DNA of 64,000 bases from an uncultured Terracidiphilus sp. (lineage in GTDB: Bacteria > Acidobacteriota > Terriglobia > Terriglobales > Acidobacteriaceae), in contig CAYTJN010000001.1 of NCBI GenBank assembly GCA_964438125.1, forward strand, positions 42,641 through 106,640. The letters are read 5' to 3'. The position numbers and the translations under genes were made by a program. Under the pieces are notes generated by a model. It had not been told where the DNA came from and did no database searches. It saw only the letters and a list, made by a program, of their open reading frames with translations. Shown here piece by piece: positions 3,498 to 49,456 of the stretch. The first letter of the stretch is position 1. The number at the start of each line of letters is the position of its first letter.

Positions 3498-4586
3498 TCA
3501 TCTGCGAGATATGTTTTTAGAGTGCAATGAATCTAGGTAAGGATTAATCGCCGACGCTATCCAAGGCGATATCTTGTCGATGCCGTACCGGTTGAAATGA
3601 CCACCGTCTGCATAGAATTCCGCATTATTGCTGAATTGTTGAGCGTCAAGCAACGGTCCGAGCCTCTCATATGCGGCGTGGTCGTACTGCCCCGGCCTGC
3701 TCGAATAGAAGGGCAGATGCACAAAGACCACAAGCGCCCCACTTTGTTTCGCCAAAGCGGAGATGCGTGCCGTGTAATCCGGCTCCAGGGGCTCATTCAG
3801 CGCGTACCATGCGGATGGCTGAACCCAATACCCATCCGCGTTGCCGAGACCAGCCTTCAATTCTGCGGCTTCTCGTGTTAGCTTCTGTTGAGGAGCGACT
3901 AAGCTACGGTCAATCAGCCTTCCACCCGGAATTCGAAAACTCCTGGTGCTATCGAAGTCCGTCCCGAGATAGTCCTTGCGAAATGCACTGCTCTTTCCGA
4001 ACCAGGCGGGAGCGATGCTTTGCACAAAGTAACTCATCTGCCGGTAAGGAAGGAATGCTGCATCCTCGGCGAAGTAGTGATTGATCACGAGTGGTGCACC
4101 TAGTATGTCTTTGGCATCCGCAATATAACGAAAAGCCGGATGACTGATATCCGCTCGTTCTACGACGGAGATCAAAATTAGCTTAGTTTCAGGATGGCAA
4201 GCCAATAACTCCTTGGCAACAATGTAATGCAGATTCCGTCCCTCGTAGGGTACGGCCAGATTGGCCACATGAATCGGACGCCCCAGTTTTGTGCTGAGAG
4301 CTGCCGCGAGGTCGGGTCCGCTCAGCGCAGCTTCAACACGGGAACTGCCGATAATTGCCACGTCAATTGGAGTTGGGTCGTTATGAATTCGCTCGTAATC
4401 CCAACGCAGCTTGAAGAGATCCGAATAGTCAAATTGTTGATATCGAATATAGCGATTGTGCGGCAGCAGAATAGATAAGAAGCAAAGGGCCGCAAAACTG
4501 CTTAATAGCACGCCCATCAGTCTCCATGCTCGACTCGTCTCAATCACAGCTTCTTCAGAAACAATATTCTCCATCTTCATTGTCAT
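3498..4586 (-). CDS. DltD/AlgJ-like SGNH-type membrane-anchored protein (putative extracytoplasmic O-acyltransferase partner of the MBOAT)
   Basis: It has an N-terminal TM helix (LMGVLLSSFAALCFLSILL), a block-I-like VAIIGSSRV and a C-terminal DGGHFN (DxxH-like). It lies 9 nt downstream of the MBOAT gene on the same strand. Confidence 0.5.
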   Translation of the reverse strand: MTMKMENIVSEEAVIETSRAWRLMGVLLSSFAALCFLSILLPHNRYIRYQQFDYSDLFKLRWDYERIHNDPTPIDVAIIGSSRVEAALSGPDLAAALSTKLGRPIHVANLAVPYEGRNLHYIVAKELLACHPETKLILISVVERADISHPAFRYIADAKDILGAPLVINHYFAEDAAFLPYRQMSYFVQSIAPAWFGKSSAFRKDYLGTDFDSTRSFRIPGGRLIDRSLVAPQQKLTREAAELKAGLGNADGYWVQPSAWYALNEPLEPDYTARISALAKQSGALVVFVHLPFYSSRPGQYDHAAYERLGPLLDAQQFSNNAEFYADGGHFNRYGIDKISPWIASAINPYLDSLHSKNISRR

Positions 4587-4595
4587 CGATCTCCG

Positions 4596-6146
4596 TTAGA
4601 ACTTGAAGTATATGAAGGATGTCGAACCACGTGACAGGAACGCGAACCCGAAGAACAGCACGACGCTCACTGCACCTACCCACACATAATTGAAGTTGAA
4701 CATGAAGCTGAATCGCGCCGGATCAACCTGGCGCCACTTATCCCACTCCAGAGCGGGCCGCACGCGATCCATGATCTGCTCTGTGTTAGGAAACAAGTAA
4801 ACGATGCAGAGCCCGACGGCAATAATGGGAATCATCATCGCATTTCCGCCGGAAGCCAAACTGGCAGACCGGTCGGACGAAATGCCAAGGCCATACAAGC
4901 CGGCCATGCCGGCAAAGATCCGCCACGCTGCGCTCATGCTGTCGGCACGGAATGGAACCTCTGCACTCACAAATGCAAGAAGAGTGAGCAATCCGAAGAC
5001 GAAAAGCGCGGGGCGAGTATCCTTCTTCCCGCGTCGCCTCTTTTTGGTGATCGCGTTATAAACTTCATTAATGCACATGAATGTGCCGTGCATGATGCCG
5101 AAAGCTACATAGGTCCAGCTTGGTCCATGCCACGTCCCAATGATCAGCATCGAAAGAAATGTCGGTAACAGCGCGGACACTGCGAGAGATGTCCATCGTC
5201 CATAACCTCGATCGGCGGACAAGCGCGTTAGCGGGATCGTCAACGGTTGGAAGATATACATGCGTACGAATCTGCTGAGCGTCATGTGCCACCGGCGCCA
5301 TAGCTCAGAGATGCTTGTGGACCTGAGGGGAGAAAAGAAGTTAAGTGGCAGCACAATCCCGAGCATCCGAGCGACTCCGATTGCCATGTCGGAGTAGCCT
5401 GAGAAGTCGAAATAGATCTGCAATGTGTAGGTGAAGGCCGCTCCCCAGGAGAGAAAAAAGCCGGGGTGAGCACCGCCTTGGGCGGCATTGAAGACTGGAT
5501 CGGCCCAGAGAGCGGCTGTATCGGCAAATACGGTTTTCTTAAAGAGTCCGAATGAGAAGATCACCAGGCCGATGAGCAGGTTTTGCGCGATGGACCGCCG
5601 GTCTGGACGCACGGCGAGTTGTGGCGCAACCTCCTGGTTAAGAGTGATGGGCCCGGAAAGGAGGGTGGGAAAGAAAGCTACAAACGCCATGTATTTCATC
5701 AGCCCGTCCGGAATTGCCCGGCCGCGCGCCACGTCCACCAGAAAGCCGATCTGCTGAAACGTATAAAAGGAAATCGCCAAGGGAGCCACAATATTAACAA
5801 AAGGACTGGTGGCTCCAAATACTCCGTACGCCGCGCCCGAAACAGCACTGAAGTACTTCAGATAAAGAAGAGTTCCGGCATTCGCAGTGACACCCAGAAT
5901 CAACCATATCTGTTTCGTCCGATGGTGATCCGTCCGGACAATCAACACGGCCAGAAGATAGTTGACAATAATGGACACGAGCAGAAGCGGAACATAACGC
6001 GGTTGAGCATGGGCATAAAACAACAGGGTCATCAAGACGAGAAATGGCAGACGCAGCGAATGGAGCCGCGTCAAAGATAGACAGTAATACACAATGAGAA
6101 CAAACGGCAGAAAGGCAAATAGAAAGACGAGGGAATTAAAACTCAT
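4596..6146 (-). CDS. MBOAT family membrane O-acyltransferase (DltB/AlgI-like)
   Basis: The 516-aa protein is polytopic. It carries the motifs FYTFQQIGFLVDV, YFDFSGYSDMAIG and the invariant-His region WRRWHMTLSRF. Confidence 0.85.
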   Translation of the reverse strand: MSFNSLVFLFAFLPFVLIVYYCLSLTRLHSLRLPFLVLMTLLFYAHAQPRYVPLLLVSIIVNYLLAVLIVRTDHHRTKQIWLILGVTANAGTLLYLKYFSAVSGAAYGVFGATSPFVNIVAPLAISFYTFQQIGFLVDVARGRAIPDGLMKYMAFVAFFPTLLSGPITLNQEVAPQLAVRPDRRSIAQNLLIGLVIFSFGLFKKTVFADTAALWADPVFNAAQGGAHPGFFLSWGAAFTYTLQIYFDFSGYSDMAIGVARMLGIVLPLNFFSPLRSTSISELWRRWHMTLSRFVRMYIFQPLTIPLTRLSADRGYGRWTSLAVSALLPTFLSMLIIGTWHGPSWTYVAFGIMHGTFMCINEVYNAITKKRRRGKKDTRPALFVFGLLTLLAFVSAEVPFRADSMSAAWRIFAGMAGLYGLGISSDRSASLASGGNAMMIPIIAVGLCIVYLFPNTEQIMDRVRPALEWDKWRQVDPARFSFMFNFNYVWVGAVSVVLFFGFAFLSRGSTSFIYFKF

Positions 6147-6193
6147 CCGTGGCTTCCTCCGGAGTTTAGATTGCTTTGAGTTAGTTAGTCAGG

Positions 6194-8122
6194 CTACACC
6201 GACTGGGGCTGTCGGGTACTTTCAACGAGAGTACCGAATACGACCACGCTTATGGGAAGTTCGGGTGGCTGGTATCCAACAAGATCAAGCGACCATTCTG
6301 TGCCGTCATCGGGCAAGTCAGAAATCTTTGTAAATCCGAGCTTTGCAAAATGATCGACAACTAGGGAGTTTTTCATGGTTGGCAGGTATACTCCCGTCAA
6401 ACGGAGAGCGCCGGCCCTCAGAGCGGCGGCTGCAACGTGCCCCAGCACGAGTTCTTCGACACGTCTCCCTAATACACGGCAACTCATTAGCCAGGTATCG
6501 CAATGCCACTCGAATTCTGCACAATCGAAGATCACCACAGAGATCATACCGTTGTCTCCGAAGCGATCCGCCAACCGGACCTGAATGCAAAATTTGCTGG
6601 GGTCGGTCTCGAAGCGCGCAATTTCATTTTCTGAATATCGCCGCGTTGTCAGATTAAACTGATTCGACTTGTTGATCAGTTGTGCGATGCGCACGCGGCC
6701 CACCGCGTCGAATGGCGCTATGGTTGCAACCATCTCAAGCGAGGCGAGGTAGTCTTCAAGATTGCCGATCTTCATGAGCGATGCGCGTTCTGCATTGGCA
6801 CCGTAATAATCGGCGCGTTTGAGATCCTCACTCGACAATCCAACGGCCTCAAAGTACCCCGCACGAGAGAGAATTCCTGCATAATCTGCCGGATCTTCAG
6901 TTAATTCAGGCACGGCCACTTCGGGAAGTAATTCGCGCACCAAGCCGCGCTCGACAGGATTATCGTCGAGAAAGACAATGGCGTCGATGCCGATGTTCAA
7001 GGTAGCCGCGATCTCACGAATGTTGTTGGCTTTGTCGTCCCAATTGGCGACGAACACGGCGATATGCTCTTCTCTGAGCAGCATCTCCGGATGTTTACGG
7101 AAGGGGAGGCGTGCGTTTTGCTCGTCATTTTTTGAGCAGACAGCCAGAACGATTCCCCTCTGTCGCAAGTTGAGAGCATAGCGCTGCAAAGCAAGATGAG
7201 CTTCCCCGGTGCTGCTGCCCTGGCCGAGCTGAATTCCATTGAGGCCGTCATCTCCAATCACACCTCCCCAAAGAGTGTTATCGAGATCCATGACCAGGCA
7301 CTTACGCGACTTGCCGCGCGCTGCAGCTAGAACGCGACACAGATGCTCGGCATGGAGCGGCGTGGCATCCATTGCCGCAGGAAGTTTCGCCTTGTGCCAG
7401 TCGCGCGCATCGTTCCACGCGGCAAGCCCGGTGAGGGCCGCAAGAGAGGCGGTATCCAAAATTAGGTCGGTGTCGCCTGCGATCTCGAAAAGCAATCGGT
7501 GATTGAATCGCTCAATCATCGCGCGAGCAGATCCTGGAAACTTTGCATCGTAGTTGCCGAAGAGCGACTCTGAAGGAGGAACAAGAGTTTGCAGCAGGCA
7601 GCATGTTCCGATTGTGTTGCGCACTCCTTCAGCCAAACCAGCAGCGTAACTGACAGCGGCATCCACCGCCGACTCGGCATCCGTTGTTGTGAGGCGTGCT
7701 TCGCTCAAACCGAGCGCACGATGATCCAAAGCAATCAGGATCGCGTCGAGGTGCGCACGGCCAAAGTCGGAGCCACGGTCCAGAAGTTGCTGTGCCGCCT
7801 GGCCGAACTCTGCCATGACAACGTCGAGCACCAGACCGTGGCGCAGGGCCGTCCCCGGTAGGGCCTGGGCGAGATAATCCACGGTATGAGAGGAAACGAT
7901 GCCGAGACGAAAAGGAGTCAAACCGACCTTTTCGGTCAGCCATTCGCGCTTCGCCTTGACTAACTTACGCAGCGCGTCCAATCCGGTGAGGTCCAAATCG
8001 AAGGCCGCCAGACGCTGAATCTCCGCGATGTCGGGAGACTCAGCCCTAAGCAGCGTCGACACACGGGCACGAAAGTTGGCCGGCTGCGGCAGATTCCACG
8101 AGAGTGAAAAGGGGCAATTCAT
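6194..8122 (-). CDS. FkbH-like HAD-superfamily IIIC protein (carrier-protein loading enzyme) with C-terminal GNAT-like fold
   Basis: It has the HAD motif I LVMDLDNTLWGGVIGDDG, then FLDDNP, and a C-terminal NQFNLTTRRY...LMSCRVLGRRVE with a conserved Cys. Its start overlaps the ACP stop by ATGA (8119-8122). Confidence 0.85.
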   Translation of the reverse strand: MNCPFSLSWNLPQPANFRARVSTLLRAESPDIAEIQRLAAFDLDLTGLDALRKLVKAKREWLTEKVGLTPFRLGIVSSHTVDYLAQALPGTALRHGLVLDVVMAEFGQAAQQLLDRGSDFGRAHLDAILIALDHRALGLSEARLTTTDAESAVDAAVSYAAGLAEGVRNTIGTCCLLQTLVPPSESLFGNYDAKFPGSARAMIERFNHRLLFEIAGDTDLILDTASLAALTGLAAWNDARDWHKAKLPAAMDATPLHAEHLCRVLAAARGKSRKCLVMDLDNTLWGGVIGDDGLNGIQLGQGSSTGEAHLALQRYALNLRQRGIVLAVCSKNDEQNARLPFRKHPEMLLREEHIAVFVANWDDKANNIREIAATLNIGIDAIVFLDDNPVERGLVRELLPEVAVPELTEDPADYAGILSRAGYFEAVGLSSEDLKRADYYGANAERASLMKIGNLEDYLASLEMVATIAPFDAVGRVRIAQLINKSNQFNLTTRRYSENEIARFETDPSKFCIQVRLADRFGDNGMISVVIFDCAEFEWHCDTWLMSCRVLGRRVEELVLGHVAAAALRAGALRLTGVYLPTMKNSLVVDHFAKLGFTKISDLPDDGTEWSLDLVGYQPPELPISVVVFGTLVESTRQPQSV

Positions 8123-8364
8123 TGCGTAGCCCTCCTGACAATAATGTCGAGCGCCTCTCCAATGTTCTTTAGTCCATCAATTTCACCGCTCGTGAAGCGG
8201 AACGAAAACTCTTTTTCCACGGCAACCAGAAAGCGAACATGGCTGAGACTGTCCCATCCCTCAACATTATCCGCAGTGAGGCTGTCATCGTACTGTAGGT
8301 CGTCCTCGTCGAATACGTCACGCATGATTTCGATTAATCGCGCAGCAGCTTCATCTCGGGTCAT
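8119..8364 (-). CDS. acyl carrier protein
   Basis: The 81-aa protein is acidic and has a phosphopantetheine-site-like GWDSLSHVRF. Confidence 0.8.
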   Translation of the reverse strand: MTRDEAAARLIEIMRDVFDEDDLQYDDSLTADNVEGWDSLSHVRFLVAVEKEFSFRFTSGEIDGLKNIGEALDIIVRRATQ

Positions 8365-8434: not shown

Positions 8435-9910
8435 TTACCAGCCTCCCACCAACTCGGCGTTGCGAATTCTCGGCCGATAAACGATAAGGCGATCGATCTT
8501 GCCGAGATCCTCGGTCGAGTCCTTGAGATCGATCGAGTGCTCGGTATCGGTCAGCCCGGTCGCAAGCACATAGCGATACTCGGTTGTCCCGTCGCCGCGA
8601 TCGAGAACCTCGGGCTTTCCCCCGCACACGTAATCTACCGACCAGTTAACGCGGAAGGAACTGTGCAGTGGAACCTTAGAGTGCTCCCAGGCTCGCTCGA
8701 CCATCCAATCACCGGGTTCAATCTGAAGCTTTCCGGAACTGGAAACAAAAGTACCTTCAGAGCTGCCAGTTCCCTGCGGTCCGGACTTGTCTCCTTGAAC
8801 CGCGAAGTTGAATTCCTTCTGATCAGAAGAAAAGTCTGAGAGCGTCGCAGTCCAGTTCTCTGCTACACGATCGTGCATAAGGACAATGCGCCGAATAGCG
8901 GGCCAGTCTGGCACGGTCTCTATTGAAGATGTCCGGCTTACCTGATAGCATCCATCGAGATTTGTTGGCGACTGCCCGTCCACGCTGACGGCCGGCCATG
9001 CGGTCAAAGGTCGATCACTTACAAGTTCCAGGCGCGTTCCCTCAATGCGTACATTCGCACTGCCGGAATCGCGCTCCTGCTCCGTCAGATGAAGCGAGTC
9101 AACATCGTGGGCCATCTCGCCGTTGTATTGACTTACCAATCCATCGAAATACTTGTTAAAGAACTCGGCGATCAATTCTTTGCCGCGAGCATTAGGGTGA
9201 ATCTCGTCGCTTAGCAGATCGCTTGGACTCGATCCGGTACGGAGAAGATACCCTCGCCACCAGTCCCGTTGCGGTTCGACGGCAAGCGCATACTTTCGGG
9301 CCATCGCGGGGATCTTGTGGTAGGACATTTCGTCATTCCACATTCGCTGGTGATACCAAAGCAAACCAGCGCAACCCGCCGGGCGGGAGAGTGTCAGATG
9401 AATCCCCTCGTCGCAACGCGGATCCGGCATCACATCCCCGTGATCTGTCTGCACGATGATGTCAGCCGCGGTACGCGATCGAAACAGCCGGATGATCTTC
9501 TCATAATCGCGGTGATCGCCATACACGTGAAAAATAATCAGGTCCGGATAGAACGCCGCAATGTCCTGTTCCGTTGTACGAACCAAGGCTTGCGACGGAA
9601 ATCCTCCAAGCGCACGATTCTCTACGACAAAGACTGTATTCGGATAGATCTGACGCCAATGCTCTACGACAGCTTCGTGCCATCCGCTGCGGGTGATCGA
9701 CTGGCCATAAAACAAAACCTTGAGAACCTTACGGTCGTTCGGTGAGCTGCCGCGGATGATCGACAGCGTGCGCGCGATTTTCTGTACATCTGGAACACTA
9801 TCGTGTTCCCGGAAGCGAACTAGCATGGTGGCAGCGAACACACCAAGAGTTGCTGCGACGCAGAGAACCAAAGCCACACGTAACCATATCTTGCGCATGG
9901 ATGAATTCAT
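8435..9910 (-). CDS. SGNH/GDSL-type hydrolase or acyltransferase with N-terminal signal/anchor and an extra C-terminal beta-rich domain
   Basis: It has an N-terminal hydrophobic segment, block I VLFYGQSITRSGW, block II ALGGF and block V SDEIHPNARG. About 250 aa at the C-terminus carry no motif I recognise. Confidence 0.6.
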   Translation of the reverse strand: MNSSMRKIWLRVALVLCVAATLGVFAATMLVRFREHDSVPDVQKIARTLSIIRGSSPNDRKVLKVLFYGQSITRSGWHEAVVEHWRQIYPNTVFVVENRALGGFPSQALVRTTEQDIAAFYPDLIIFHVYGDHRDYEKIIRLFRSRTAADIIVQTDHGDVMPDPRCDEGIHLTLSRPAGCAGLLWYHQRMWNDEMSYHKIPAMARKYALAVEPQRDWWRGYLLRTGSSPSDLLSDEIHPNARGKELIAEFFNKYFDGLVSQYNGEMAHDVDSLHLTEQERDSGSANVRIEGTRLELVSDRPLTAWPAVSVDGQSPTNLDGCYQVSRTSSIETVPDWPAIRRIVLMHDRVAENWTATLSDFSSDQKEFNFAVQGDKSGPQGTGSSEGTFVSSSGKLQIEPGDWMVERAWEHSKVPLHSSFRVNWSVDYVCGGKPEVLDRGDGTTEYRYVLATGLTDTEHSIDLKDSTEDLGKIDRLIVYRPRIRNAELVGGW

Positions 9911-9981: not shown

Positions 9982-11034
9982 TCAGTCTGCGCCACTCTGC
10001 TTGTACTCGATGAGTTTGCGCGCTTTTCTCTGTCTCTTTCCCAGTTCATATTGCAGTTGCCCTGCGAGAATTGGAATCTGCTGGAGATGCGAATGAACCC
10101 CGTACAGCAGTAGAGTTCCGAGGCTCGCATTCTTCCGGCGGGCCTTCCACGCTGAGCGCACCGACAATCCCATGAGCAGGCCAAGCCAGAGCAAGATGGG
10201 GAGGAACCCAAAGAATAAACTGACAAGGATAACAATGGTCAACGAGACAAGCCAGAAGCCTCCGCGCATCAGATTGCGTCTTCGGTCTGTGCTCCAGAAT
10301 GGATCCTCAGTGTTTCGGAAGCGCTCCGATACTTCGGCATAGGCATGGCCGGCGCGCGTGGCGCGCTTCCAATACTGGCTCCAGCGCGTGATTTGCAAAT
10401 CGTGTCCTGTCATTGGGCAATCGATGTGCAATATCGCATAGCCTTGAGATCTTATGCGCCGGCAAAGCTCCGGTTCCTCTCCGGCAATGAGCCGCTCGTC
10501 GAAGCCTCCCGTCCCGACCAGAACCTGGCGGCGCATCAGCACGTCGCCGCCGCAGAACTCCGTGAACCCAGGAGGATACACCCAATCGAGGTCGAGGATG
10601 CGGTTATAGATTGAGGCCTCAGGCTGGATCTCGCGGCGATGCCCCCAGACTGCGCCAACTGAAGGCCCTTGCTCCATTGCCTTACATGCCGCCAAGGCAA
10701 AGTCCGGATCGAGCACGGTATCTCCATCGAGAAAAAGAATCAACTCCGATGTTGCGCACTGCCAGCCGGCGTTTCGTCCGATGGCAGCAGTAGGCCTCTC
10801 CGGATGGACCGCGATTACCTTTGCGCCAGACCGCGCTGCCAACTCCGGGCTGCCATCGGTTGATGAGGAATCAACATAGATCAACTCCTTCACAACAACG
10901 CCTCGAACCCGACCGATGGAGTCGAGGCACGCAGTTAGGCGCTGGCCCTCATTGCGGCCGATCACGACAACCGAGATTGCCGGCGGCGCCGCATCGGATT
11001 CGTTCTCCACGTGATTCTTAGCGACTGGTTGCAT
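9982..11034 (-). CDS. family 2 glycosyltransferase with C-terminal TM helices
   Basis: Motifs are ISVVVIGRNEG, YVDSSSTDGS and FLDGDTVL (DxD), with hydrophobic C-terminal helices. The ORF extends to 11154, but I chose ATG 11034 (MQPVAKN...) to limit overlap with the upstream gene. The start is uncertain. Confidence 0.75.
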   Translation of the reverse strand: MQPVAKNHVENESDAAPPAISVVVIGRNEGQRLTACLDSIGRVRGVVVKELIYVDSSSTDGSPELAARSGAKVIAVHPERPTAAIGRNAGWQCATSELILFLDGDTVLDPDFALAACKAMEQGPSVGAVWGHRREIQPEASIYNRILDLDWVYPPGFTEFCGGDVLMRRQVLVGTGGFDERLIAGEEPELCRRIRSQGYAILHIDCPMTGHDLQITRWSQYWKRATRAGHAYAEVSERFRNTEDPFWSTDRRRNLMRGGFWLVSLTIVILVSLFFGFLPILLWLGLLMGLSVRSAWKARRKNASLGTLLLYGVHSHLQQIPILAGQLQYELGKRQRKARKLIEYKQSGAD

Positions 11035-11608
11035 GCACACTCCGCTCTTCAGCCGCGTTTGCATTGACCTTCTCAACATTTGTTGCAATGGACGGCGTCT
11101 TTCGCGGAAGCACTCGCGCCGGAACTCCGACTGCGACGGAATTAGAGGGAACATCGATAAGAACCACTGCGTTGGCTCCGATTACAACGTCATCCCCTAT
11201 TCGGATCGCGCCAAGGATCTTGGCGCCCGCGCCTATGTCCACACGGTTCCCGAGGATGGGTGCTCCGCGCTGACCGGTGTACTTCAGTCCCACGGTGACG
11301 CCGTTGCGGATCACGCAGTCGTCCCCGAAGACTGCGTCTCCGCTGATGACAATCCCGCCGAAATGGTCGATTCTAAATCGCCGCCCAAGCGTTGCTTCAC
11401 AAGGAAGCTCGATCCCCGTAAGGACTTCGGAAATAGGCTTCAGCACCTTATAGACAAAAGAGAAGGGAACTCGCAGCCAGCGCCAGCGAATCGTATAGCG
11501 CCAGCGCCCATAGCGGTAAACTGCCATTGCCCAAAGACCCTGGCGGGAGATTTGGCGGTCGTGCGTTTGCCAGTCTTCGCGGATGCTGTCGAACAAATCC
11601 AGCCTCAA
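11018..11608 (-). CDS. left-handed beta-helix (hexapeptide) acetyltransferase, serine-acetyltransferase/WcaB-like
   Basis: Hexapeptide repeats are visible: GGIVISGDAVFGDDCVIRNGVTVG...RVDIGAGAKILGAIRIGDDVVIGANAVV. Confidence 0.75.
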   Translation of the reverse strand: MRLDLFDSIREDWQTHDRQISRQGLWAMAVYRYGRWRYTIRWRWLRVPFSFVYKVLKPISEVLTGIELPCEATLGRRFRIDHFGGIVISGDAVFGDDCVIRNGVTVGLKYTGQRGAPILGNRVDIGAGAKILGAIRIGDDVVIGANAVVLIDVPSNSVAVGVPARVLPRKTPSIATNVEKVNANAAEERSVHATSR

Positions 11609-11653
11609 TCCTTTCAGAGCGTTTGCTCAAATCAAGTGCTGTTTTACGGATCG

Positions 11654-12745: not shown

Positions 12746-12851
12746 GATCCTTTGTGATTGGATTCAAAAGTAGACTGGGCGGCTCAATCCAAATGAGACT
12801 TCCTGCGGGTCAAACGCCGATTCATTCTTCCGTCCGCCGCTCATTCAAGGA

Positions 12852-13454: not shown

Positions 13455-13498
13455 AGAGTTTCCTGGCAGATCGATGTGGGCTTCATGGCGCAGGTTAT

Positions 13499-14503: not shown

Positions 14504-14510
14504 AGCCCTC

Positions 14511-15863: not shown

Positions 15864-15874
15864 GCGTGACCACC

Positions 15875-17161: not shown

Positions 17162-17167
17162 AGGCGC

Positions 17168-18124: not shown

Positions 18125-18137
18125 AGGGGGCTCCTGT

Positions 18138-35912: not shown

Positions 35913-35976
35913 GGTTTCCTCCGTCTCTACCCATCGAAGTAGTTTCGAATCTCCCAGACGTTGTCCGTGCGCACCT

Positions 35977-42362: not shown

Positions 42363-42441
42363 CGATTGACAACGTCCTTTGCCCGGGATAGCCTTCCTCC
42401 CGAAGTTATCCTCATGAAGCGGGTTTGTTTTGATCTCGAAG

Positions 42442-44628
42442 TCAAGCGCGAACCCTTTCTCGCCTTGCCGGGTCCTTCGCCGGCGTTGAACGACGTTGCC
42501 TGAACGATTGCTCATACCTGTTGAGTTCTGTTTTCAAGGCCCGATCCGCTCGCTCCAGACGAATCTTGTTCAAAACCACTGCCACTCCGGAGACCTCCAG
42601 ACGCTCGAGCAGCCTTGCCGCGCGATCCAGTTCCTGCTTAGTCGTGGTGCTCGACATCACTACAAGCACGGTCACATCTGACACCCTAGCAAGATACTCG
42701 GTATGCGCGGAGATAGGCAACGGAGTCGCATCGATCAGAATTACGTCGTATTGTTCGCTCGCGTGATGCAAGCCCTGCATTACTGGATTGAGCGTTGAAG
42801 CCTCATGTCCCATTCCGTATTCCGGGCGACTATGAGTAGCCGCGATCGGTGCGAGGGCGGCGAGTCGGATTTCGTCGTTCTTGTTCCGCTTTTGCAATAG
42901 GAATTGAGAACGCCAGGTGTTGTTACCGGGGGTGATTTCCGCTCCTTCGGATGCCGACGCCACGATCGTATGTGTTCTAAGATCGAGGCTGCGCAGCTTT
43001 TCGCTCACCTCCCTCACAACAGTGCTTGTACCGCTGCCATGCGATGGAGCCGTAAACAGAAAGACTCGCGCCCCCGCATTCCTGACCGCATGGTCGATGC
43101 CTGCCGCCAATCGCAGATAGTATTCGCCGGCAACTTCGCGGCGGAATTCCCGATTGTCAAGTAGAACTCCGAGCGGATAGAAGCCCATGACTCGCTCGAC
43201 GTCGTTTGCGGTGAATATTCTATTGTCCAGCAGATCGATTGAGACTGGAGTGCCAACGACGAAGGCTAGACTCAACAGAAAAAGACCAAGAAAGTAGATT
43301 CGCTCCCGGCTTGTCTCCGGGTTGAGCGGAGTGAGCGCTTTTGTGGATACATGGATTGACCCAGGAGAACTGCTTTCAAGTTCGAGGTCGCGGATGCGGT
43401 CGTCGACTGCGCTATACGCCTTTTGCAGACTATCAATCTCTGGCCCAAGTGCCGCGGCTCTTTGAAATTTCGGAGCTGCAGATGTAGCCGTGTGCGTCTT
43501 TTGCGCCAGTTCCTGGGTCAATTGAAGTTCAATCATGCGCGTGCGCGCTACTTCCTGGCGCATCCTGTCTTGAAGGTGTTCGCCGGCCTCGCGTCGCAGG
43601 TTGTTCATCATACCGTCGATTGAAGTCAATTCTTCCTTGTCTTTCTGGTAGATTGGATGATCCGGCCGCATCCCGCTCATTTCTTCCATCAAGGCAGTTC
43701 TCCGATTGTTCAGGGAAGTCCTCACTCCAGACAATCCTGAGTCGGTGGCGATCGCCTGATCTTCGTCCGCCTCCATCGCATTCGGTCCCCCAGTACTGCT
43801 TCCTTTCAATACGGCTGCCAATTGCGCCTCTGCCGCTTCGCGCTGCATGCGTGCGTTAACCTGCTCCTCGTTCAACTTTTGCAGCGTCGAATCATAGACA
43901 TTGCTTCCGCCATCCTGGCCCGAAAGCGTGGCAACGCCGAGCTGCTGCATCAGCTGCGCTTGTTCCGACAGACCGTCATCCATCTGCTTCTGGAGCCGGA
44001 CCTTTTCCTGCCGAAGAGTATTCAAGCGATCGTCCAGCCCATAAAACTCCTCGTTCTTCATTCGCTCTACATAGGTGTCGGTTACAGTATTTACAACCTC
44101 AGCGAGATCGTTTGGCGTCGTGCCATGCAGGATGATTTCCATCTCATACGTGGCGCCGAGTCTCTTAACTTCAAGCTCCGATTGCAAGACCTCAATCTCG
44201 TATGGCAATGCGGGACCCTGGTAGGACCGCGGCAAACCTCTCCGGTATCGCACTGCATAGGGAAGTCTGGAGATGGAATCCGCAATGATGTCGTGCCGTG
44301 TCACCGTCGAGATCTGGTCCTGAACATACGAATCGTACGGAAGTTCAACCTCAGTGTCTCCTACCAGCATCTTCGGAAACTTCGGCGACAGATAAACCAC
44401 GCTGTGTGATTCATAATTAGGTTTCGCCTTTTTCCAGATAGCAAAAGTCCCGCAGCCGCCCAAGACAAGAAACAGTGCCGCCGCGACGTACCAGTGACGG
44501 CGAAGACTGCCAAACACGTCGATAACTGGACGCGACCCTTCACTTGAACCGCCGGTCCGGCGCAGAGGTGCCGATGGCAGGCTCTTGGAGCTTCCGGGAA
44601 GCGAGTTGTCGGATGTTGTATTGATCAT
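42442..44628 (-). CDS. polysaccharide co-polymerase (PCP-2a/Wzc/GumC-like) with degenerate C-terminal P-loop domain
   Basis: It has two TM segments around a long coiled-coil periplasmic region. The C-terminal ATPase-like domain has Walker A APSHGSGTST (Lys replaced) and a VILIDATP segment. ATG 44628 is preceded by GGAAAGG. Confidence 0.8.
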   Translation of the reverse strand: MINTTSDNSLPGSSKSLPSAPLRRTGGSSEGSRPVIDVFGSLRRHWYVAAALFLVLGGCGTFAIWKKAKPNYESHSVVYLSPKFPKMLVGDTEVELPYDSYVQDQISTVTRHDIIADSISRLPYAVRYRRGLPRSYQGPALPYEIEVLQSELEVKRLGATYEMEIILHGTTPNDLAEVVNTVTDTYVERMKNEEFYGLDDRLNTLRQEKVRLQKQMDDGLSEQAQLMQQLGVATLSGQDGGSNVYDSTLQKLNEEQVNARMQREAAEAQLAAVLKGSSTGGPNAMEADEDQAIATDSGLSGVRTSLNNRRTALMEEMSGMRPDHPIYQKDKEELTSIDGMMNNLRREAGEHLQDRMRQEVARTRMIELQLTQELAQKTHTATSAAPKFQRAAALGPEIDSLQKAYSAVDDRIRDLELESSSPGSIHVSTKALTPLNPETSRERIYFLGLFLLSLAFVVGTPVSIDLLDNRIFTANDVERVMGFYPLGVLLDNREFRREVAGEYYLRLAAGIDHAVRNAGARVFLFTAPSHGSGTSTVVREVSEKLRSLDLRTHTIVASASEGAEITPGNNTWRSQFLLQKRNKNDEIRLAALAPIAATHSRPEYGMGHEASTLNPVMQGLHHASEQYDVILIDATPLPISAHTEYLARVSDVTVLVVMSSTTTKQELDRAARLLERLEVSGVAVVLNKIRLERADRALKTELNRYEQSFRQRRSTPAKDPARRERVRA

Positions 44629-44644
44629 GATCAGCCTTTCCAAC

Positions 44645-45814
44645 TCAGTGAACAGCCAGGGCCGCAAAACTTGCCATGGTCACGAATGGCGCTAACTGTT
44701 GCATCACGAAGCCCACTTTGGCCATTCCACTCTTGGGCACGTAGACGATGTCGCCGGGATAAAGCGAGACTTCCATGCCGCCATTTGGCTTCAAAAGATC
44801 TTTGAAACGGACATATTGAGTCTTGTCCCCCTTTGAACGGTGGACGACCTGAATCTCCGGATTTCCACCTGCGGAATCGTTCACCCCACCTGCCTCGCCC
44901 AAAACCGAAGCGACAGTTGAATCGTGCTTTAAGGCCACCGGCCCAGGATGCTGCACCTGCCCCATAATGGTTATGGTTCTTGTCGACAACGCGGGCACAA
45001 ATACTACGTCGTTGCGTCGTAATCGCAGATCTGCGAGCGGACTGCCCGATGTCAGCAGTTGTTGTAATTCAACCCAGTACACTTGATCCCCGCGGTAAAT
45101 CACACACTGCTCTGGCATGCTGCCATCGGGGCGTGCTTGTATGCCGCCTCTGGAGAGCACTTCCAGCAGAGTGGGCGTTTGTTCAAAGCTCACCATGCCG
45201 GGATTCTTCACGTCTCCTAGTAAAGTGACATGATTTGAGCCATATTTCTCCACCTCGACGGTCGCGGCGAGCTTTGTGTAGTAAGGGGACATCGCCTCCA
45301 CAATCGTCTGCCCCGCTTGCTCGCGAGTCAGGTCAGCAAGCTTGATCGGCCCGACGAGCGGGAGCGTCACCCGACCGTCTGGACCAATCACATCTTTGCT
45401 TGCCAAATCGGTCCTGCCAGGATACTGAATGGATATTTCATCCCCCGGTCCCAGCGTGTACTCCTCATCCACTGAAGGCTCGAACTTGCGTAGGGCCTCG
45501 ATGGGGCTCAGTTTCAGTTGTGGGTCAGGCAGATTCTCCTGGTTCGAACCTCCAGTTGACTGATCGCTGCGGGGCGAGTCCTTGGCCGACGTCTGACCGT
45601 CTGCTCCCTTGGCTTCAGCCGGCTGCGTGCAGACCGCGCCAAGTGCAAAGAGAGTGATGCCGCATAGCTTAAGCGCTTGACGTTGAATCGGCAGATTCAC
45701 AGATAACTCCTTCAGCAAACGCTTGGCGGATTGCTTAGAGACGCGGCCGGCAAGCGCTGCCACAACAGCATAAATTGGATTCGACGCTGCACGCCGAATG
45801 CTGCGCTCGTTCAT
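44645..45814 (-). CDS. Wza-like outer-membrane polysaccharide export protein (Poly_export + SLBB)
   Basis: The Poly_export motif is YTLGPGDEISIQYPGRTDL. The SLBB-like repeats are RGDQVYWV...RRNDVVFVP and YPGDIVYVP. It has a 4-nt ATGA overlap with the upstream GT2. Confidence 0.85.
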   Translation of the reverse strand: MNERSIRRAASNPIYAVVAALAGRVSKQSAKRLLKELSVNLPIQRQALKLCGITLFALGAVCTQPAEAKGADGQTSAKDSPRSDQSTGGSNQENLPDPQLKLSPIEALRKFEPSVDEEYTLGPGDEISIQYPGRTDLASKDVIGPDGRVTLPLVGPIKLADLTREQAGQTIVEAMSPYYTKLAATVEVEKYGSNHVTLLGDVKNPGMVSFEQTPTLLEVLSRGGIQARPDGSMPEQCVIYRGDQVYWVELQQLLTSGSPLADLRLRRNDVVFVPALSTRTITIMGQVQHPGPVALKHDSTVASVLGEAGGVNDSAGGNPEIQVVHRSKGDKTQYVRFKDLLKPNGGMEVSLYPGDIVYVPKSGMAKVGFVMQQLAPFVTMASFAALAVH

Positions 45815-47064
45815 TGGCTATCTCCCGGAGTGTCTCTAGCAGTTCGTACCCATGATGAATCGGCGCGGGAAGCACGCCAGACCTCGGGGATAATTCGTAA
45901 CTTCCAGAAGATATAGGCTGGCGCCTCTGCTAGAACTCTTATCGTTCCCCGCCAACCGGAACCACAAGCGGCGGCAGCCGTTACGTGCAATGTGAGGACG
46001 AGAAACCCTACCGACGCATACAGCCTGAGCCACGGAACAGGCAGGCAGGCAGCAAGAAACAGCAGACAAACTTCGGTTGCGATCGGCAACGTCAGCAGAT
46101 CGAGCAGTGGCTCCAGAAGCCGAACTCGTCCGCCCAGTAAGTCTCCCATAAGCCGAGGAACCCACTGTCTCGTCATTCTCCGCCGGCCTCCTTCCCAGCG
46201 TGCGCGTTGTGTGCATGCCCCTTGATCCGACTGCGGCATCTCGCCGCTTACTGCGGCAGTGTCAACAAACTCCACCCGGATGCCGGCTCGTACGAGAGCG
46301 AGATGATATTCAAGATCCTCAACGACGGAATAGGCACAGTACGGAATTCGCGTCAGCACTTCGCGGCGCAATGCGAAACCATTGCCCAGGATCCCCGCCG
46401 AAAGACCTAAGCGGTCGCGTCCACGCGGGCGAATCACATTGAATGCTTGAAAGGCGAGAGTCATCAACCGTGTGCGATCGCTTTGCTCACTGTTATAAAC
46501 TTCATAACGGCATTGCACGGCTTGCGCGCCACACAGAAATTTCTCTCGAACAGCATCAATCAGGCCCGGGCTTACGACAGAGTCCGCATCAATGACCATC
46601 ACGGCCTTTGAGGGCCCAGCTAGAGCTTCAGCGAAGCCAAAACTGAGCGCACTGCCCTTACCCTTTTGTTCGGGATCGTTCAACATCAAAACTCTTGCTC
46701 CAGCGGCTTCGGCTTCGGATGCAGTCCTATCTGTGCAGTTATGGGCGATCGCTAAAAGGTCCACGCCAGGACCCACCGAGGAAGCGAAACTGCGAATGCA
46801 GCGCCCGATGAGAGCCTCCTCGTTATGGGCCGGAACCAGGATTGTTATCGCAAAATCCTCCGTTGAGCCCACCTGTTTTGCTTTTTTCCGCGCGTGTGGC
46901 AGCAAAGATGCAGTGGTCAGCACGAGCAGTTCCGCAAGCAAAGGAGCCGTGCCCAGTACCAGTGCGATCCCAATGACGTCAAGCGCTCGCGATAAAAACA
47001 TAGGATTGATCTCCGATTGTCCGGGCAGTGACGAAGCCATTTTGTGAGGAGGTACTGCTGGCAA
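45811..47064 (-). CDS. membrane-embedded family 2 glycosyltransferase with processive-synthase-type QxxRW motif
   Basis: Motifs are ITILVPAHNEE, VIDADSVV and QRARWEGG, with flanking TM helices. Confidence 0.8.
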   Translation of the reverse strand: MPAVPPHKMASSLPGQSEINPMFLSRALDVIGIALVLGTAPLLAELLVLTTASLLPHARKKAKQVGSTEDFAITILVPAHNEEALIGRCIRSFASSVGPGVDLLAIAHNCTDRTASEAEAAGARVLMLNDPEQKGKGSALSFGFAEALAGPSKAVMVIDADSVVSPGLIDAVREKFLCGAQAVQCRYEVYNSEQSDRTRLMTLAFQAFNVIRPRGRDRLGLSAGILGNGFALRREVLTRIPYCAYSVVEDLEYHLALVRAGIRVEFVDTAAVSGEMPQSDQGACTQRARWEGGRRRMTRQWVPRLMGDLLGGRVRLLEPLLDLLTLPIATEVCLLFLAACLPVPWLRLYASVGFLVLTLHVTAAAACGSGWRGTIRVLAEAPAYIFWKLRIIPEVWRASRADSSWVRTARDTPGDSQ

Positions 47065-47122: not shown

Positions 47123-48457
47123 CTATGCCGCGTCGGCCGGTGTCAAACTTTGTATCAGTCCATCGAGGTCGCGTCCGCTTTGGGGCATCGCCGGCACAGA
47201 ATCGACAGCAAATCCCCGGCTAAGCAGTTGCTGTACCTGACGGTATACAGACGGGACCTCCTGGGCGTGAATCGGAACCAGTTGGCCGCCAATCCGGCAG
47301 TACGCCCAGTCCTTCCCGAACTGCGAAACCGGAACCGTCTCCGGCTGGATGCGCCGCAATGCCCCCGCGACTTTTGGCGCCGTGCGAAAGAAAAGACGCA
47401 GCCGTGAAGCCTCCAGCACATTTGCCAGAAGACGATCAAGCCCTGCCAACCATAGTTCGCGTTTCCAGCATCGAGCAACGTTCATGACATAGATGAGCGA
47501 GGCGAGCGCGTCCGCACCAATGTACGCCGTGTTGCCCATATCCAGAACCACATGGAAACCTGCAAGAACCGCGCTGCGGACGTCGGATTCAAATTGCGGC
47601 AAGATTGCGCCCGTGAAATCACCATCGATGCGGATCACGAGAGCCGAGCCTGACATCTGTTGCGAAATCCGCGCCTCTTTGCGCCGCTTCCCCTGCATCG
47701 CCATCGCGGCAAGTTGGACCGGGAGATAACGCAACAGACCGATGGCATTGCCGACATAGCGCTTGGCCAACCGCGATGGCTCCTGCATTGTGCGGTAGAG
47801 CCACTCCATTCCGGTCTGCTGCATCCATAACGGCGCGCGGGAAACTTTGCCGCTGAGAAAATCGAATGATGCGCCGACTCCAACACAAACGGGCACCTCG
47901 AGCCGGTGCCGATGCATGGCCAACCATTTTTCCTGCTTGGGGTTTCCAAAGGCAACCAGAAGAATGTCCGGACGGGCGGCTTCGATCCTATCAAGGATAC
48001 CCTCGTGATCCATCTCTTCCAGTGGTTGATGCTTCGGACAATATCGTCCCACAATGCAGACGCCAGGATAGTTCTTCTCCATCCACGCTGCTGCGCCAGC
48101 AGAACTCTCTTCCTCCGCCCCGAGCAGGAAGAGTCGATAGCCCTGTTCGGCCGACAATTTCGCGAGCTGCGGAACGAGATCCGCACCAGCCACCCGTTCC
48201 TTCAGCCCCGCACCCAGGAGCCGCGATGCCCACACGAGTGGTGCTCCATCAGCCAAAACCAGATCACAACCGGCAAGCGTCTCGTAGAGTTCCTCATCGT
48301 GGATTGACTTCATCAGGAAGTCGACGTTTGCGGTCGCAATTTGATGGAAGCCGCCCTCTGCGATGTTGGCCTCCACTGCGTCGAGAACTTCTTCCATCGT
48401 CAGGTTGTCAACAGCAACACCCAGGATGGCAACACGGGGATCTTTGCATTCTGCCAT
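47123..48457 (-). CDS. WecG/TagA/CpsF (GT26) glycosyltransferase fused to a C-terminal STAS domain
   Basis: The GT26 part reads ILGVAVDNLTMEEVL...LADGAPLVWASRLLG...LLVAFGNPKQEKW. The STAS part reads LVIRIDGDFTGAILPQFESDV...VVLDMGNTAYIGADALASL. ATG 48457 is preceded by GGAGCG. Confidence 0.8.
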   Translation of the reverse strand: MAECKDPRVAILGVAVDNLTMEEVLDAVEANIAEGGFHQIATANVDFLMKSIHDEELYETLAGCDLVLADGAPLVWASRLLGAGLKERVAGADLVPQLAKLSAEQGYRLFLLGAEEESSAGAAAWMEKNYPGVCIVGRYCPKHQPLEEMDHEGILDRIEAARPDILLVAFGNPKQEKWLAMHRHRLEVPVCVGVGASFDFLSGKVSRAPLWMQQTGMEWLYRTMQEPSRLAKRYVGNAIGLLRYLPVQLAAMAMQGKRRKEARISQQMSGSALVIRIDGDFTGAILPQFESDVRSAVLAGFHVVLDMGNTAYIGADALASLIYVMNVARCWKRELWLAGLDRLLANVLEASRLRLFFRTAPKVAGALRRIQPETVPVSQFGKDWAYCRIGGQLVPIHAQEVPSVYRQVQQLLSRGFAVDSVPAMPQSGRDLDGLIQSLTPADAA

Positions 48458-48654
48458 GGTGATCGCTCCACAGTGCTTCTGCTTGCGACGGGTCCTGCCT
48501 ACTGTTCTCAATTTGATCTGTAGACCAATCGAACCCGTGGAAGGGAAGAAACGAGGTTACGGCGGTCTCATGACCGGTAAAGATGAAAAGGGAAGCTTAC
48601 GTAGACGCGTTCCTCAGGAAGGCGCCCGAATTGCGGTGGTTATGGCGGTTCTCG

Positions 48655-48690
48655 GTAAAAAATACACCCCCTCACATGGACGGTGAGGGC
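48655..48690 (-). terminator. candidate intrinsic terminator/attenuator hairpin in the leader between the NusG paralog and the first biosynthetic gene
   Basis: On the minus strand, a 7-bp GC-rich stem (48683-48689 pairs with 48669-48675) has a 7-nt loop and is followed by GGTGTATTTTTT. The U-tract is offset from the stem by about 6 nt. Confidence 0.3.
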
Positions 48691-48859
48691 ATTCCTGTTA
48701 GAGAATCGCACGACATTTCTGGGAAGTTTGAACGAAGAGCGACTCACAACAGCTTATGATTCCGGCATGACGGGATAAGTTAGCATTCCCCGGTTTTCTG
48801 GTTGCTTTCTGTTCTGTTTCCATAGTGCGACTTTACTTAGTTGCGTTTCATGGTTGAGG

Positions 48860-49456
48860 TTAATTGTTTCGGTCGATACTATTTGATCCGGATCGCTCAT
48901 GAACGGCCTCTACATCACTCAAGGCAAGCTCGGCCGAAATAGCTTGCGAGAATACTGAGATGGTAACGATGAGACGAAGGTTGTTCTTGATTCGCGCCAG
49001 GCGCCCCTTTATTCCCGCCAGGGGACCTCGAGTAACCTGCACCAGCGTCCCGGCAGTCAATGCATCGCAGCGATTACAGGGAATGTTGCTACCGAGGGTT
49101 CGGTGAACAGCCTCTATTTCGACTTCGGAAATCTGGCTTGGTGTGTGGTTTCCGCCCAGCAGACGAACAATGCCGTTCGTCTCCAGCACCTTCACCCGGT
49201 TACGTAAACTCGGTTCATAGTGAATAAAAAGGTAGCCGCTGAATGCGGGCACCTCAATAACCTTGCGGCGATCCTTCCATTGATGTATCTCTCGCAGCAA
49301 TGGAAGATAAGTCCGAAATCCTTTCGCGGTTAAACCGGAAGCAACGCGCTGCTCGCAGCGGTAACCGGTCTGCACTGCGTACCAGGCTTGGTCAGTATTA
49401 TCCCGTAAGGGCAACTTTCCGATTCCGGTTTCGACGCTAAAGCAGGCTTCGCCCAT
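48860..49456 (-). CDS. NusG-family specialised antiterminator paralog (RfaH/UpxY/TaA-like)
   Basis: The NGN region reads WYAVQTGYRCEQRVASGLTAKGFRTYLPLL...VPAFSGYLFI. The KOW region reads GTLVQVTRGPLAGIKGRLARI. I chose the start at ATG 49456. Confidence 0.8.
   Translation of the reverse strand: MGEACFSVETGIGKLPLRDNTDQAWYAVQTGYRCEQRVASGLTAKGFRTYLPLLREIHQWKDRRKVIEVPAFSGYLFIHYEPSLRNRVKVLETNGIVRLLGGNHTPSQISEVEIEAVHRTLGSNIPCNRCDALTAGTLVQVTRGPLAGIKGRLARIKNNLRLIVTISVFSQAISAELALSDVEAVHERSGSNSIDRNN

Follow-up and report, generated by a model that had tools for sequence, protein, structure and literature searches.

A predicted Thr-malonyl-Gly NRPS-PKS line conserved within an acidobacterial exopolysaccharide locus, and a separable FkbH/MBOAT cassette

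The locus described here lies in a 64,000-nucleotide stretch of DNA from an uncultured Terracidiphilus sp. (contig CAYTJN010000001.1, positions 42,641 to 106,640 of the forward strand), called the window below, and combines the genes of an exopolysaccharide (EPS) pathway with a three-protein line of non-ribosomal peptide synthetase and polyketide synthase (NRPS-PKS) modules. A six-frame list of open reading frames (ORFs) together with Pfam and NCBIfam scans gives 30 genes from a NusG paralog to the last gene at the distal end (g01 to g30 in Table 1), 29 of them on the minus strand; the sole plus-strand gene encodes a type II thioesterase (TE-II). Intergenic gaps are mostly 6-160 nt, the larger ones being 348 nt between the NusG paralog and the WecG-family gene and 207 nt between the divergent genes for TE-II and the priming glycosyltransferase (GT). 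Stop and start codons overlap at the junctions of acyl carrier protein (ACP) and FkbH (8119-8122), g16 and g17 (20777), the A-T protein and the megasynthase (28777-28780), and GT2 and Wza (45811-45814). An earlier note on this DNA, made from the letters alone, had described both the single-strand layout and these four overlaps, and both were reproduced. Its functional labels were likewise confirmed for the UpxY-type NusG, Wza, Wzx, priming transferase, RmlB, GTs and acyltransferases by Pfam and NCBIfam, and for A-T, KS-AT-T-AmT-C-A-T, C-T-TE, TE-II, FkbH, ACP and MBOAT by profile scans (A, adenylation; T, carrier; C, condensation; KS, ketosynthase; AT, acyltransferase; AmT, aminotransferase; TE, thioesterase). 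Its labels for g05, g30 and the two cupin proteins hold less firmly and are discussed with those genes.

Table 1. Genes and features of the locus and its upstream flank, in window coordinates (TM, transmembrane segment; OPX, outer-membrane polysaccharide export; PCP, polysaccharide co-polymerase; 2OG, 2-oxoglutarate)
Gene or feature	Position	Strand	Evidence and remarks
Candidate Wzy-type polymerase, 11 TM	50531..51967	+	Wzy_C E 0.0068, 16.6 bits, below cutoff 31.7
Small XRE/HTH_3 regulator gene, 76 aa	49840..50070	-	Pfam HTH_3 E 6e-9; upstream of NusG paralog
Leader with three diverged direct repeats of ~125-150 nt	49456..49860	-	74% mean column identity; just upstream of NusG paralog start
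g01 UpxY-family NusG paralog	48860..49558 (probable start 49456)	-	NF033644 112.8 bits (cutoff 100)
Terminator-like hairpin and T-run	48669..48689	-	In the 348-nt gap between NusG paralog and first EPS gene
g02 WecG/TagA-family GT fused to STAS domain, core	47123..48511	-	PF03808 212 bits, STAS 33 bits
g03 GT2, EpsU-like, core	45811..47064	-	Pfam/NCBIfam
g04 Wza/OPX outer-membrane export protein, core	44645..45814	-	Poly_export 63 bits and SLBB
g05 PCP/Wzc-like co-polymerase, degenerate kinase-like domain, core	42442..44667	-	Weak TIGR01007/TIGR03017 matches
g06 esterase, 3 N-terminal TM, accessory	40929..42515	-	PAF-AH_p_II 58.8 bits; PDB 5yae esterase 1e-35; GHSFG motif
g07 cupin A, JmjC-fold 2OG/Fe(II) oxygenase, accessory	39806..40813	-	AlphaFold model and Foldseek
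g08 type II thioesterase, accessory	38983..39735	+	PF00975 157 bits; opposite strand in all form-A loci
g09 priming polyprenyl-phosphate glycosylphosphotransferase, core	37228..38775	-	TIGR03025 411.9 bits (cutoff 295.6); Bac_transf 231 bits
g10 dTDP-glucose 4,6-dehydratase RmlB, variable	35977..37071	-	TIGR01181 468 bits; in some form-A loci only
g11 cupin_8, JmjC-like oxygenase, accessory	34998..36014	-	Cupin_8 27.2 bits; JMJD5 weak
g12 GT-C (PMT_2/ArnT-like) membrane glycosyltransferase, variable	33111..34928	-	PMT_2 E 7.6e-5; 11 TM
g13 hexapeptide acyltransferase, variable accessory	32358..33092	-	Hexapep; 5/12 form-A loci
g14 Wzx flippase, MOP family, core	30825..32234	-	Polysacc_synt_3 152 bits; 10 TM
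g15 NRPS loading protein A-T	28777..30765	-	Specificity code DFWNIGMVHK (Thr)
g16 KS-AT-T-aminotransferase-C-A-T megasynthase	20777..28780	-	AT HAFH (malonyl); A code DILQLGVIWK (Gly-like)
g17 termination module C-T-TE, no A domain	18138..20777	-	HHSVCDG, GGRS, GYSFG motifs
g18 conserved soluble protein, core	17168..18124	-	Always after C-T-TE or Wzx
g19-g25 GT4, GT4, GT2, hexapeptide acyltransferase, weak GT4, CysE/EpsC-like acyltransferase, GT2	9982..17161	-	Glycan assembly and acetylation
g26 membrane-anchored GDSL/SGNH-like protein, first cassette gene	8435..9910	-	Lipase_GDSL_2 E 0.004; PDB 6hfz 1e-3
g27 acyl carrier protein	8119..8364	-	PP-binding 23.8 bits
g28 FkbH-family, predicted carrier-protein loader	6194..8122	-	TIGR01686 297.8 bits (cutoff 146.7) and FkbH_N
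g29 MBOAT (DltB/AlgI-like O-acyltransferase)	4596..6146	-	PF03062 60 bits, above cutoff; TIGR04091 176.6 bits, below 375
g30 membrane-anchored protein at DltD/AlgJ position	3498..4586	-	GSSR and DGGH motifs, one N-terminal TM; always after MBOAT gene

Judged from its gene families, the core is a Wzx/Wzy-type EPS locus behind an UpxY-family NusG paralog. The label Wzc-like, which the earlier note had given to g05, is weaker than claimed. The profile matches of this protein stay below threshold (TIGR01007, 37 bits against a cutoff of 108), and it has two TM segments; since its Walker A motif, GSGTST, lacks the Lys and no tyrosine cluster is found at its C-terminus, g05 is probably not an active BY-kinase. 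The core protein g18 matched no entry of Pfam, NCBIfam or PDB. The best NCBIfam models for g02, g03, g20 and g24 come from the Eps system of Myxococcus xanthus (EpsZ, U, A, D, E, H, C, Y), whose models are also matched by g04, g09, g19, g21 and g25, and the two systems have in common a priming transferase, Wzx, OPX, a PCP or PCP-like protein, GT2 and GT4 enzymes and acetyltransferases. However, these matches are far under the equivalog cutoffs (244 bits against 700 for EpsU, 248 against 400 for EpsE), and the genes of the window are therefore relatives, not orthologues, of the M. xanthus Eps genes. The M. xanthus locus is not known to contain an NRPS-PKS, cupin oxygenases or an FkbH cassette.

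Between the Wzx gene and g18 lie the three genes of the assembly line, whose domain set is complete and whose reading frames and catalytic residues are all intact. KS carries the GACATS, HGTAT and NIGH motifs with their Cys, His and His, AT carries GHSIG and HAFH, which form the malonyl signature, and AmT has its Lys in ATYGK. The C domains show HHIVLDG in g16 and HHSVCDG in g17, all three T domains retain their Ser (GGRS in the T domain of g17), and TE has GYSFG. KR, DH and ER domains are absent from the line. The class-III aminotransferase follows the PKS carrier domain and lies between T and C, at residues 1330-1687 of the long ORF (Aminotran_3, 169.5 bits). Specificity codes of the A domains were read off alignments to a fragment of GrsA, whose known code, DAWTIAAICK, the procedure reproduced as a check. 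We take the code of g15 to be the canonical Thr code and that of g16 to be one residue off the Gly code. Among the orthologues of g15, the Thr code or a one-residue variant was found in all 12. In those relatives whose termination module is C-A-T-TE, the code of the third A domain is Gly-like and its sequence shares 55-76% identity with that of the second A domain in its own line, and the paired C domains of the second and third modules share 20-30% identity. An extreme case is L117 (10001-14056 against 1971-10001), in which the A domain of the third module has 100% protein identity to that of the second over ~400 residues and the C domains ~25-30%; this identity is due either to gene conversion or duplication in the very recent past or to an artefact of metagenome assembly. 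The T-TE part of g17 has its best PDB match over its full length in the termination module AB3403 (1e-36), and EntF, SrfA-C and Pks13 were matched as well.

These domains would allow a short product to be drawn. Thr would be loaded by g15 and extended with malonate by KS-AT-T, and transamination of the resulting beta-keto group would give a 3,4-diamino-5-hydroxyhexanoyl unit. This unit would be condensed to Gly and then to a second Gly on the A-less C-T-TE module, whose T domain probably receives its Gly in trans from the A domain of g16, because the third A domains of relatives are Gly-like and related to the second. The predicted chain is thus 3,4-diamino-5-hydroxyhexanoyl-Gly-Gly, on which the two JmjC-fold oxygenases of the locus may place hydroxyl groups.

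Each part of this line has a counterpart in known systems. The same order KS-AT-T-AmT-C-A-T, with a class-III aminotransferase between the PKS and NRPS parts, is found in MycA and ItuA of mycosubtilin and iturin synthesis and in McyE of microcystin synthesis, in which the aminotransferase turns a beta-keto thioester into a beta-amino acyl chain. Here, in contrast, the starter is an amino acid, by its Thr code, on a stand-alone A-T protein, rather than a fatty acid or polyketide, and the line has just three modules and lies inside a polysaccharide operon. As for the A-less module, a single Cys A domain of yersiniabactin synthetase charges an A-less module in trans, and the C-T-TE that forms module 9 of syringomycin SyrE likewise depends on an A domain outside the module for the loading of its carrier domain. 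The likeness of g17 to these cases lies in its A-less C-T-TE architecture and in the Gly-like code that the third A domains of relatives have in common with the second; the difference is that in-trans loading is here deduced from such comparisons, that no SyrC-like shuttle was identified, and that g06, the esterase, has a predicted periplasmic location. AB3403 (PDB 4ZXH; C-A-T-TE, from Acinetobacter baumannii), which we take to be a Gly-activating module of a cluster linked to biofilm and motility, differs in having its own A domain and in lying outside polysaccharide loci. A scheme of the SyrB1/SyrC kind, in which g15 would load the A-less module from the side, the cupins would act on tethered Thr and g06 would be the shuttle, was also considered. 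It was rated lower because g15 is translationally coupled to the KS-first megasynthase through an ATGA overlap, because the third A domains of relatives are of Gly type and not of Thr type, and because g06 is predicted to face the periplasm. Supply of a glyceryl unit to the PKS by FkbH and ACP was rejected, as most NRPS-bearing loci lack that cassette and NRPS-free loci can have it.

Four further proteins accompany the line. The g06 esterase has its three TM segments after a positively charged N-terminus, and its catalytic domain is predicted to be periplasmic. The cupins g07 and g11, which the earlier note had labelled JmjC-type, reach only borderline scores in Pfam (for g11, 27.2 bits with Cupin_8, whose cutoff is 27.4; a 3-HAO match of 20 bits). 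Nevertheless, the AlphaFold model of g07 (pLDDT 85, pTM 0.85) matches JmjC hydroxylases, the top Foldseek hits being YxbC, FIH and NO66 (E ~1e-11, TM-score 0.45-0.51), and its putative iron triad HxD...H (H152, D154 and H225) is invariant in 40 homologues; g11 is a paralog of g07 with the same motif. PDB sequence searches with g07, g11, g18 and g30 returned nothing useful. The fourth protein is the TE-II. A paralog of the g06 esterase (35% identity, full length) is also found in locus L060, in a 4.6-kb stretch between Wzx and g18 that holds other unidentified sequence besides. A homologue of cupin A (P0200) in the genome carrying the distant locus L028 lies in an unrelated context and is uninformative on that locus. 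Another acidobacterial locus (L020, 626-8535; also L019 and L022), with a Wzx 59% identical to that of the window, has three Cupin_8 proteins near Wzx, together with an ABC transporter, an MBOAT protein and a 2OG-Fe(II) oxygenase, and no NRPS within 10 kb. Since these cupins occur without an NRPS, the cupin family seems tied to polysaccharide loci more broadly than to NRPS.

The history of the line was followed in 117 related loci. A scan with the Wzx protein, one genome per species, gave 25 loci, of which the best were in Terracidiphilus metagenome-assembled genomes at 86% identity, which marks the window as Terracidiphilus-like; a metagenome scan with g18 added 80, in sample series that we take to be peat, bog and forest soil, and more came from look-ups on the NRPS and cassette sides. 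An exact look-up of the Wzx protein of the window had no hit, probably owing to a difference in the called start. Synteny maps made with tblastn define two forms. In form A the order is Wzc, esterase, cupin A, TE-II on the opposite strand, priming GT, (RmlB), cupin_8, (GT-C, hexapeptide acyltransferase) and Wzx, followed by A-T, megasynthase, C-T-TE, g18, GT4, GT4, GT2 and onwards. In form B it is NusG, WecG/STAS, GT2, Wza, Wzc, priming GT, Wzx, g18, GT4, GT4, GT2 and onwards, and the NRPS-PKS, esterase, cupin A, TE-II and cupin_8 genes are missing, as seen in those loci whose stretch was read far enough upstream. The g19-g25 core block is kept in both forms. Twelve of the 25 genome loci are form A (Terracidiphilus and other Acidobacteriaceae) and about 6 are form B. 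The synteny comparison that the earlier note had proposed thus finds the NRPS-PKS block between Wzx and g18/GT4 in these 12 genome loci, and C-T-TE directly before g18, with a median gap of about 30 nt, in 53 of 87 loci; among the loci in which the gene upstream of g18 is legible, Wzx takes that place in 17.

The accessory genes follow the line closely. Cupin A, cupin_8 and TE-II occur in each of the 12 form-A genome loci, and the esterase, which is present only in form A, is found wherever the stretch reaches its slot. These genes occupy three separate slots (between Wzc and the priming GT, between the priming GT and Wzx, and between Wzx and g18) with retained core genes between them, and they are all there or all missing together. 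Moreover, in the form-B locus L008 the gap between Wzc and the priming GT holds a frame-intact pseudogene remnant of cupin A (residues 232-294), matched by 11 of 11 orthologues tested at E 1e-7 to 1e-11, and in a neighbour-joining tree of g18 form A is found to either side of the root, with form B as one main clade and at least two separate tips. Because of this remnant and of this tree, the absence of the line is read as secondary loss, and the form-B state, on present gene content, as concerted loss of the line with its helper genes. Relatives with the same EPS backbone and no NRPS-PKS genes, which the earlier note had named as counter-evidence to its idea, do occur, in 17 loci; they are not taken as refutation because the esterase, cupins and TE-II are co-absent from separate slots, and because of the remnant and the tree.

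Another statement of the same note stood, as the surroundings of the NRPS-PKS block showed neither a transposase or integrase gene nor flanking repeats. In the comparison of composition that the note had proposed as a check, the block does not deviate from the core genes. The G+C content at third codon positions (GC3) is 0.624 in the NRPS-PKS genes and 0.623 in the core EPS genes, which argues against a recent insertion. Orthologues of the line are 63-86% identical in protein sequence across species, and the arrangement reaches further. Relatives of C-T-TE at 51, 46 and 45% identity lie in the order Wzx, A-T, megasynthase, C-(A)-T-TE, g18-like gene and GT4; a fourth, 66% identical over the C domain, agrees with this order from A-T on, its stretch stopping short of Wzx, and a fifth (L110, 44% identity) adjoins Wzx in a different layout. 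At the level of the single gene, the cultured Granulicella rosea encodes a relative of the termination module as well, a C-A-T-TE protein (WP_089407380.1). Among the loci compared, no exporter or other transporter, regulator, or resistance or immunity gene co-varies with the line, and the only envelope protein that does so is the esterase predicted to face the periplasm. By these comparisons, the NRPS-PKS module is an old, ancestral part of the locus that behaves as a single unit and that the backbone can do without, which fits a decoration of the polysaccharide or a product that accompanies it.

How the parts may work together can be outlined as follows. The priming transferase, GTs and acetyltransferases would build a lipid-linked repeat unit, Wzx would flip it, and the Wzy candidate, the Wzc-like protein and Wza would polymerise and export the EPS. 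An optional module, made up of the three-protein NRPS-PKS line, the two JmjC-fold oxygenases, the proofreading TE-II and the membrane esterase, would add a small, polar, amine-rich chain. In its most likely fate, this chain would be moved by the terminal TE to a sugar in the lipid-linked repeat unit, giving an EPS with side chains of the peptide-polyketide type that the periplasmic esterase might trim. We consider the chances about even that the thiotemplate product is functionally coupled to the EPS. What ties it to the EPS is that the line is kept between flippase and GT genes across deep divergence, that no exporter, regulator or immunity gene travels with it, and that the co-travelling esterase would face the periplasm, which is sensible if the chain arrives there on a flipped glycan. 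The more specific proposal, that a Thr-derived diamino-acyl-Gly-Gly chain is transferred by the TE to the undecaprenyl-linked repeat unit, flipped by Wzx and polymerised into the EPS as a cationic side chain, is put forward as tentative and is the less probable of these two statements.

Several points weigh against attachment to the EPS or against details of the chain. TE transfer to a sugar and the attachment of the chain to the glycan are deductions from gene content. Wzx of NRPS-free loci is 73-77% identical to that of the window, nearly as similar as the 75-86% of NRPS-bearing loci, so that the flipped substrate may not differ much, and neither an additional glycosyltransferase nor an amino-sugar pathway strictly follows the line in presence and absence. 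The link of the cupins to the line is not universal, as homologues stand away from any NRPS (L020, L112). The Thr and Gly assignments depend on code tables, and the identity of the third and second A domains in L117 could reflect an assembly artefact. Furthermore, the 46 kb need not be a single transcript, because TE-II lies on the opposite strand with the 207-nt divergent gap.

The nearness of Wzx in the two forms and the loss of the module without loss of EPS genes are also what would be expected if the line made a free, soluble peptide-polyketide, released by the TE through hydrolysis or cyclisation, unattached to the glycan and placed in the EPS operon for co-expression only; such a metabolite might serve, for example, as a matrix-associated signal, a metal binder or an antimicrobial. 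This is the main rival, to which the nearly unchanged backbone genes of loci without the line lend weight, and so does the TE itself, an ordinary type I domain whose best PDB matches (AB3403, EntF and SrfA-C) release free products. We nevertheless hold it to be rather unlikely: the line has no co-varying gene for a transporter, a regulator or immunity, persistence between Wzx and g18/GT4 down to 45% C-T-TE identity is rare for self-contained NRPS clusters, and a periplasmic location of the co-varying esterase is hard to square with a free product in the cytoplasm.

Modification of another envelope component, such as a lipid, lipopolysaccharide (LPS) or a surface protein, with the operon shared through regulation by the NusG paralog, has in its favour that oxygenases of the JmjC/FIH type usually act on protein or peptide residues and that the distal end of the locus has a large surface protein with CHB_HEX_C_1 repeats as its conserved neighbour. 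That protein, however, adjoins some loci irrespective of the presence of the NRPS, the locus is without lipid or LPS genes, and the tight embedding of the line between flippase and GT genes points to the EPS pathway; we regard this alternative as improbable, clearly more so than a free metabolite. Least credible of all, to the point of being nearly negligible, is chance juxtaposition or decay, in which an NRPS-PKS once inserted would now be inert or in the course of being lost. About a quarter of the related loci have indeed lost the line (17 against 53), but reading frames and catalytic motifs are all intact, orthologues retain the identity given above across species with GC3 as in the core, and the arrangement persists in three of the four distant relatives whose context was read.

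Coupling of the line to the EPS would matter beyond this genus. In acidic soils and peat, Acidobacteriaceae, with Terracidiphilus and Granulicella among them, are dominant, and their EPS, thought to underlie desiccation tolerance, aggregation and carbon retention, is barely known in its chemistry and genetics. A full-text literature search found no account of an NRPS-PKS inside an acidobacterial EPS locus, nor of an FkbH/MBOAT polysaccharide system. The component families are each known; what is new is that a Thr-malonyl(amino)-Gly-Gly line is kept embedded in a Wzx/Wzy operon, or else lost in concert with the tailoring genes. That the line stays in the EPS operon in relatives with a C-T-TE identity as low as ~45%, or disappears as a whole, points to a class of polysaccharide decoration for which the literature search gave no precedent. 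If this is true, the abundant peatland Acidobacteriaceae would have a possibly zwitterionic EPS, decorated with peptide-polyketide chains and open to remodelling by a dedicated periplasmic esterase, and this would be the first case of an NRPS-PKS as the tailoring enzyme of a Wzx/Wzy polysaccharide. Gly and a diamino-hydroxy acid are predicted in the EPS of carrier strains and not in that of NRPS-free relatives, for which the presence/absence variants found in nature are ready-made controls.

The earlier note had placed the FkbH/ACP/MBOAT genes in one scheme with the NRPS-PKS, as parts of one co-regulated product class. Of this reading the co-function of NRPS-PKS and EPS is strengthened, but the cassette is uncoupled from it, its presence being independent of the NRPS. 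The cassette (g26-g30, with g26 travelling along with the other four) is missing from most form-A loci, in which g25 is followed directly by the CHB-repeat protein; it is present in the window and in L069, both form A, and in L080 and L083, both form B. The genome of the form-B locus L018 has all five as a stand-alone unit (L113, 8215-14597), on the other strand and ~11 kb from the EPS locus. Judged by this distribution, the cassette is a separate five-gene unit, independent of the NRPS. Alphaproteobacterial records of Novosphingobium and Sphingomonas (L115 and L116, 9700-15550) contain a 61%-identical FkbH with ACP, MBOAT and a g30-like gene and an added methyltransferase, in an O-antigen-like polysaccharide locus with rml and Wzy_C genes. 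This suggests that ACP, FkbH, MBOAT and the g30-like protein form a mobile, uncharacterised system of polysaccharide acylation, which would pass a carrier-bound small acyl group, such as glyceryl, across the membrane, probably onto the polymer. With ~61% identity between Acidobacteria and sphingomonads, it appears to be a widespread Dlt-like modification system.

The logic of such a cassette would be that of Dlt (DltA-D) and of alginate AlgI/J/F/X, in which a carrier-bound acyl group reaches an extracytoplasmic polymer through an MBOAT protein, and the likeness extends to the small carrier protein and to membrane-anchored SGNH-like partners. Unlike Dlt, the cassette has no DltA adenylating ligase, an FkbH-family protein standing in its place, and g30 has no detectable homology to DltD. 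No match to g30 was found in Pfam, NCBIfam or PDB, even at E 5-10, so that the label DltD-like of the earlier note is left with the position, the TM anchor and the GSSR and DGGH motifs. Since both DltA and a detectable DltD are missing, the cassette is Dlt-like in mechanism and not a Dlt system.

Upstream of the EPS genes, the assignment of g01 to the UpxY family, for which NGN and KOW architecture was the feature looked for, is given by its profile score, and Pfam NusG scores 70 bits; the NusG paralogs of form-B loci are only 31-43% identical to it. As with UpxY of Bacteroides capsules, LoaP of Bacillus polyketides and RfaH, a NusG paralog here heads a very long one-strand operon. It differs from those operons in combining polysaccharide and thiotemplate genes; a further likeness is a terminator-like hairpin in the leader between the UpxY-family gene and the first biosynthetic gene. 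This hairpin has a 7-bp stem with 5 GC pairs, followed by TATTTTTT, and is suggestive only, the count of such sites in the window being not above that of shuffles. Its position is where a processive antiterminator would be needed. Each of the three leader repeats contains a GTGCYnGGAGC...GCTCTnGCAC hairpin, then an A-rich stretch and then CAGCRCTCAGA; they had no Rfam match and could be a leader RNA or an array of regulator-binding sites.

Scans for sigma-70 promoters and terminators in the window gave no more sites than shuffles, and the sigma-54 consensus had 32 matches against 35 expected, none of them convincing; at such counts, these scans cannot define transcription units. An Rfam scan of the whole window matched no family, and BLASTN of the leader and intergenic regions against related loci revealed no conserved non-coding element, except for a weak similarity in the gap between TE-II and priming GT in L012 and L013.

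The flanks of the locus add a few observations. The divergent gene for the candidate Wzy-type polymerase is the sole polymerase candidate for the locus, none being found inside 3498-49558, and a 54%-identical homologue of its product adjoins Wzx in L023. At the distal end, the CHB-repeat surface protein (window 6-3236, plus strand) has 11 CHB_HEX_C_1/Fn3_assoc repeats and a C-terminal TM anchor, and is the conserved convergent neighbour of the EPS locus in L037, L040, L052-59, L062, L075-77 and L117. A PAS/GAF sigma-54 enhancer-binding protein is encoded next to the locus (window 52224-54518, plus strand), and a sigma-54 activator likewise adjoins the distant locus L027 (20437-21867).

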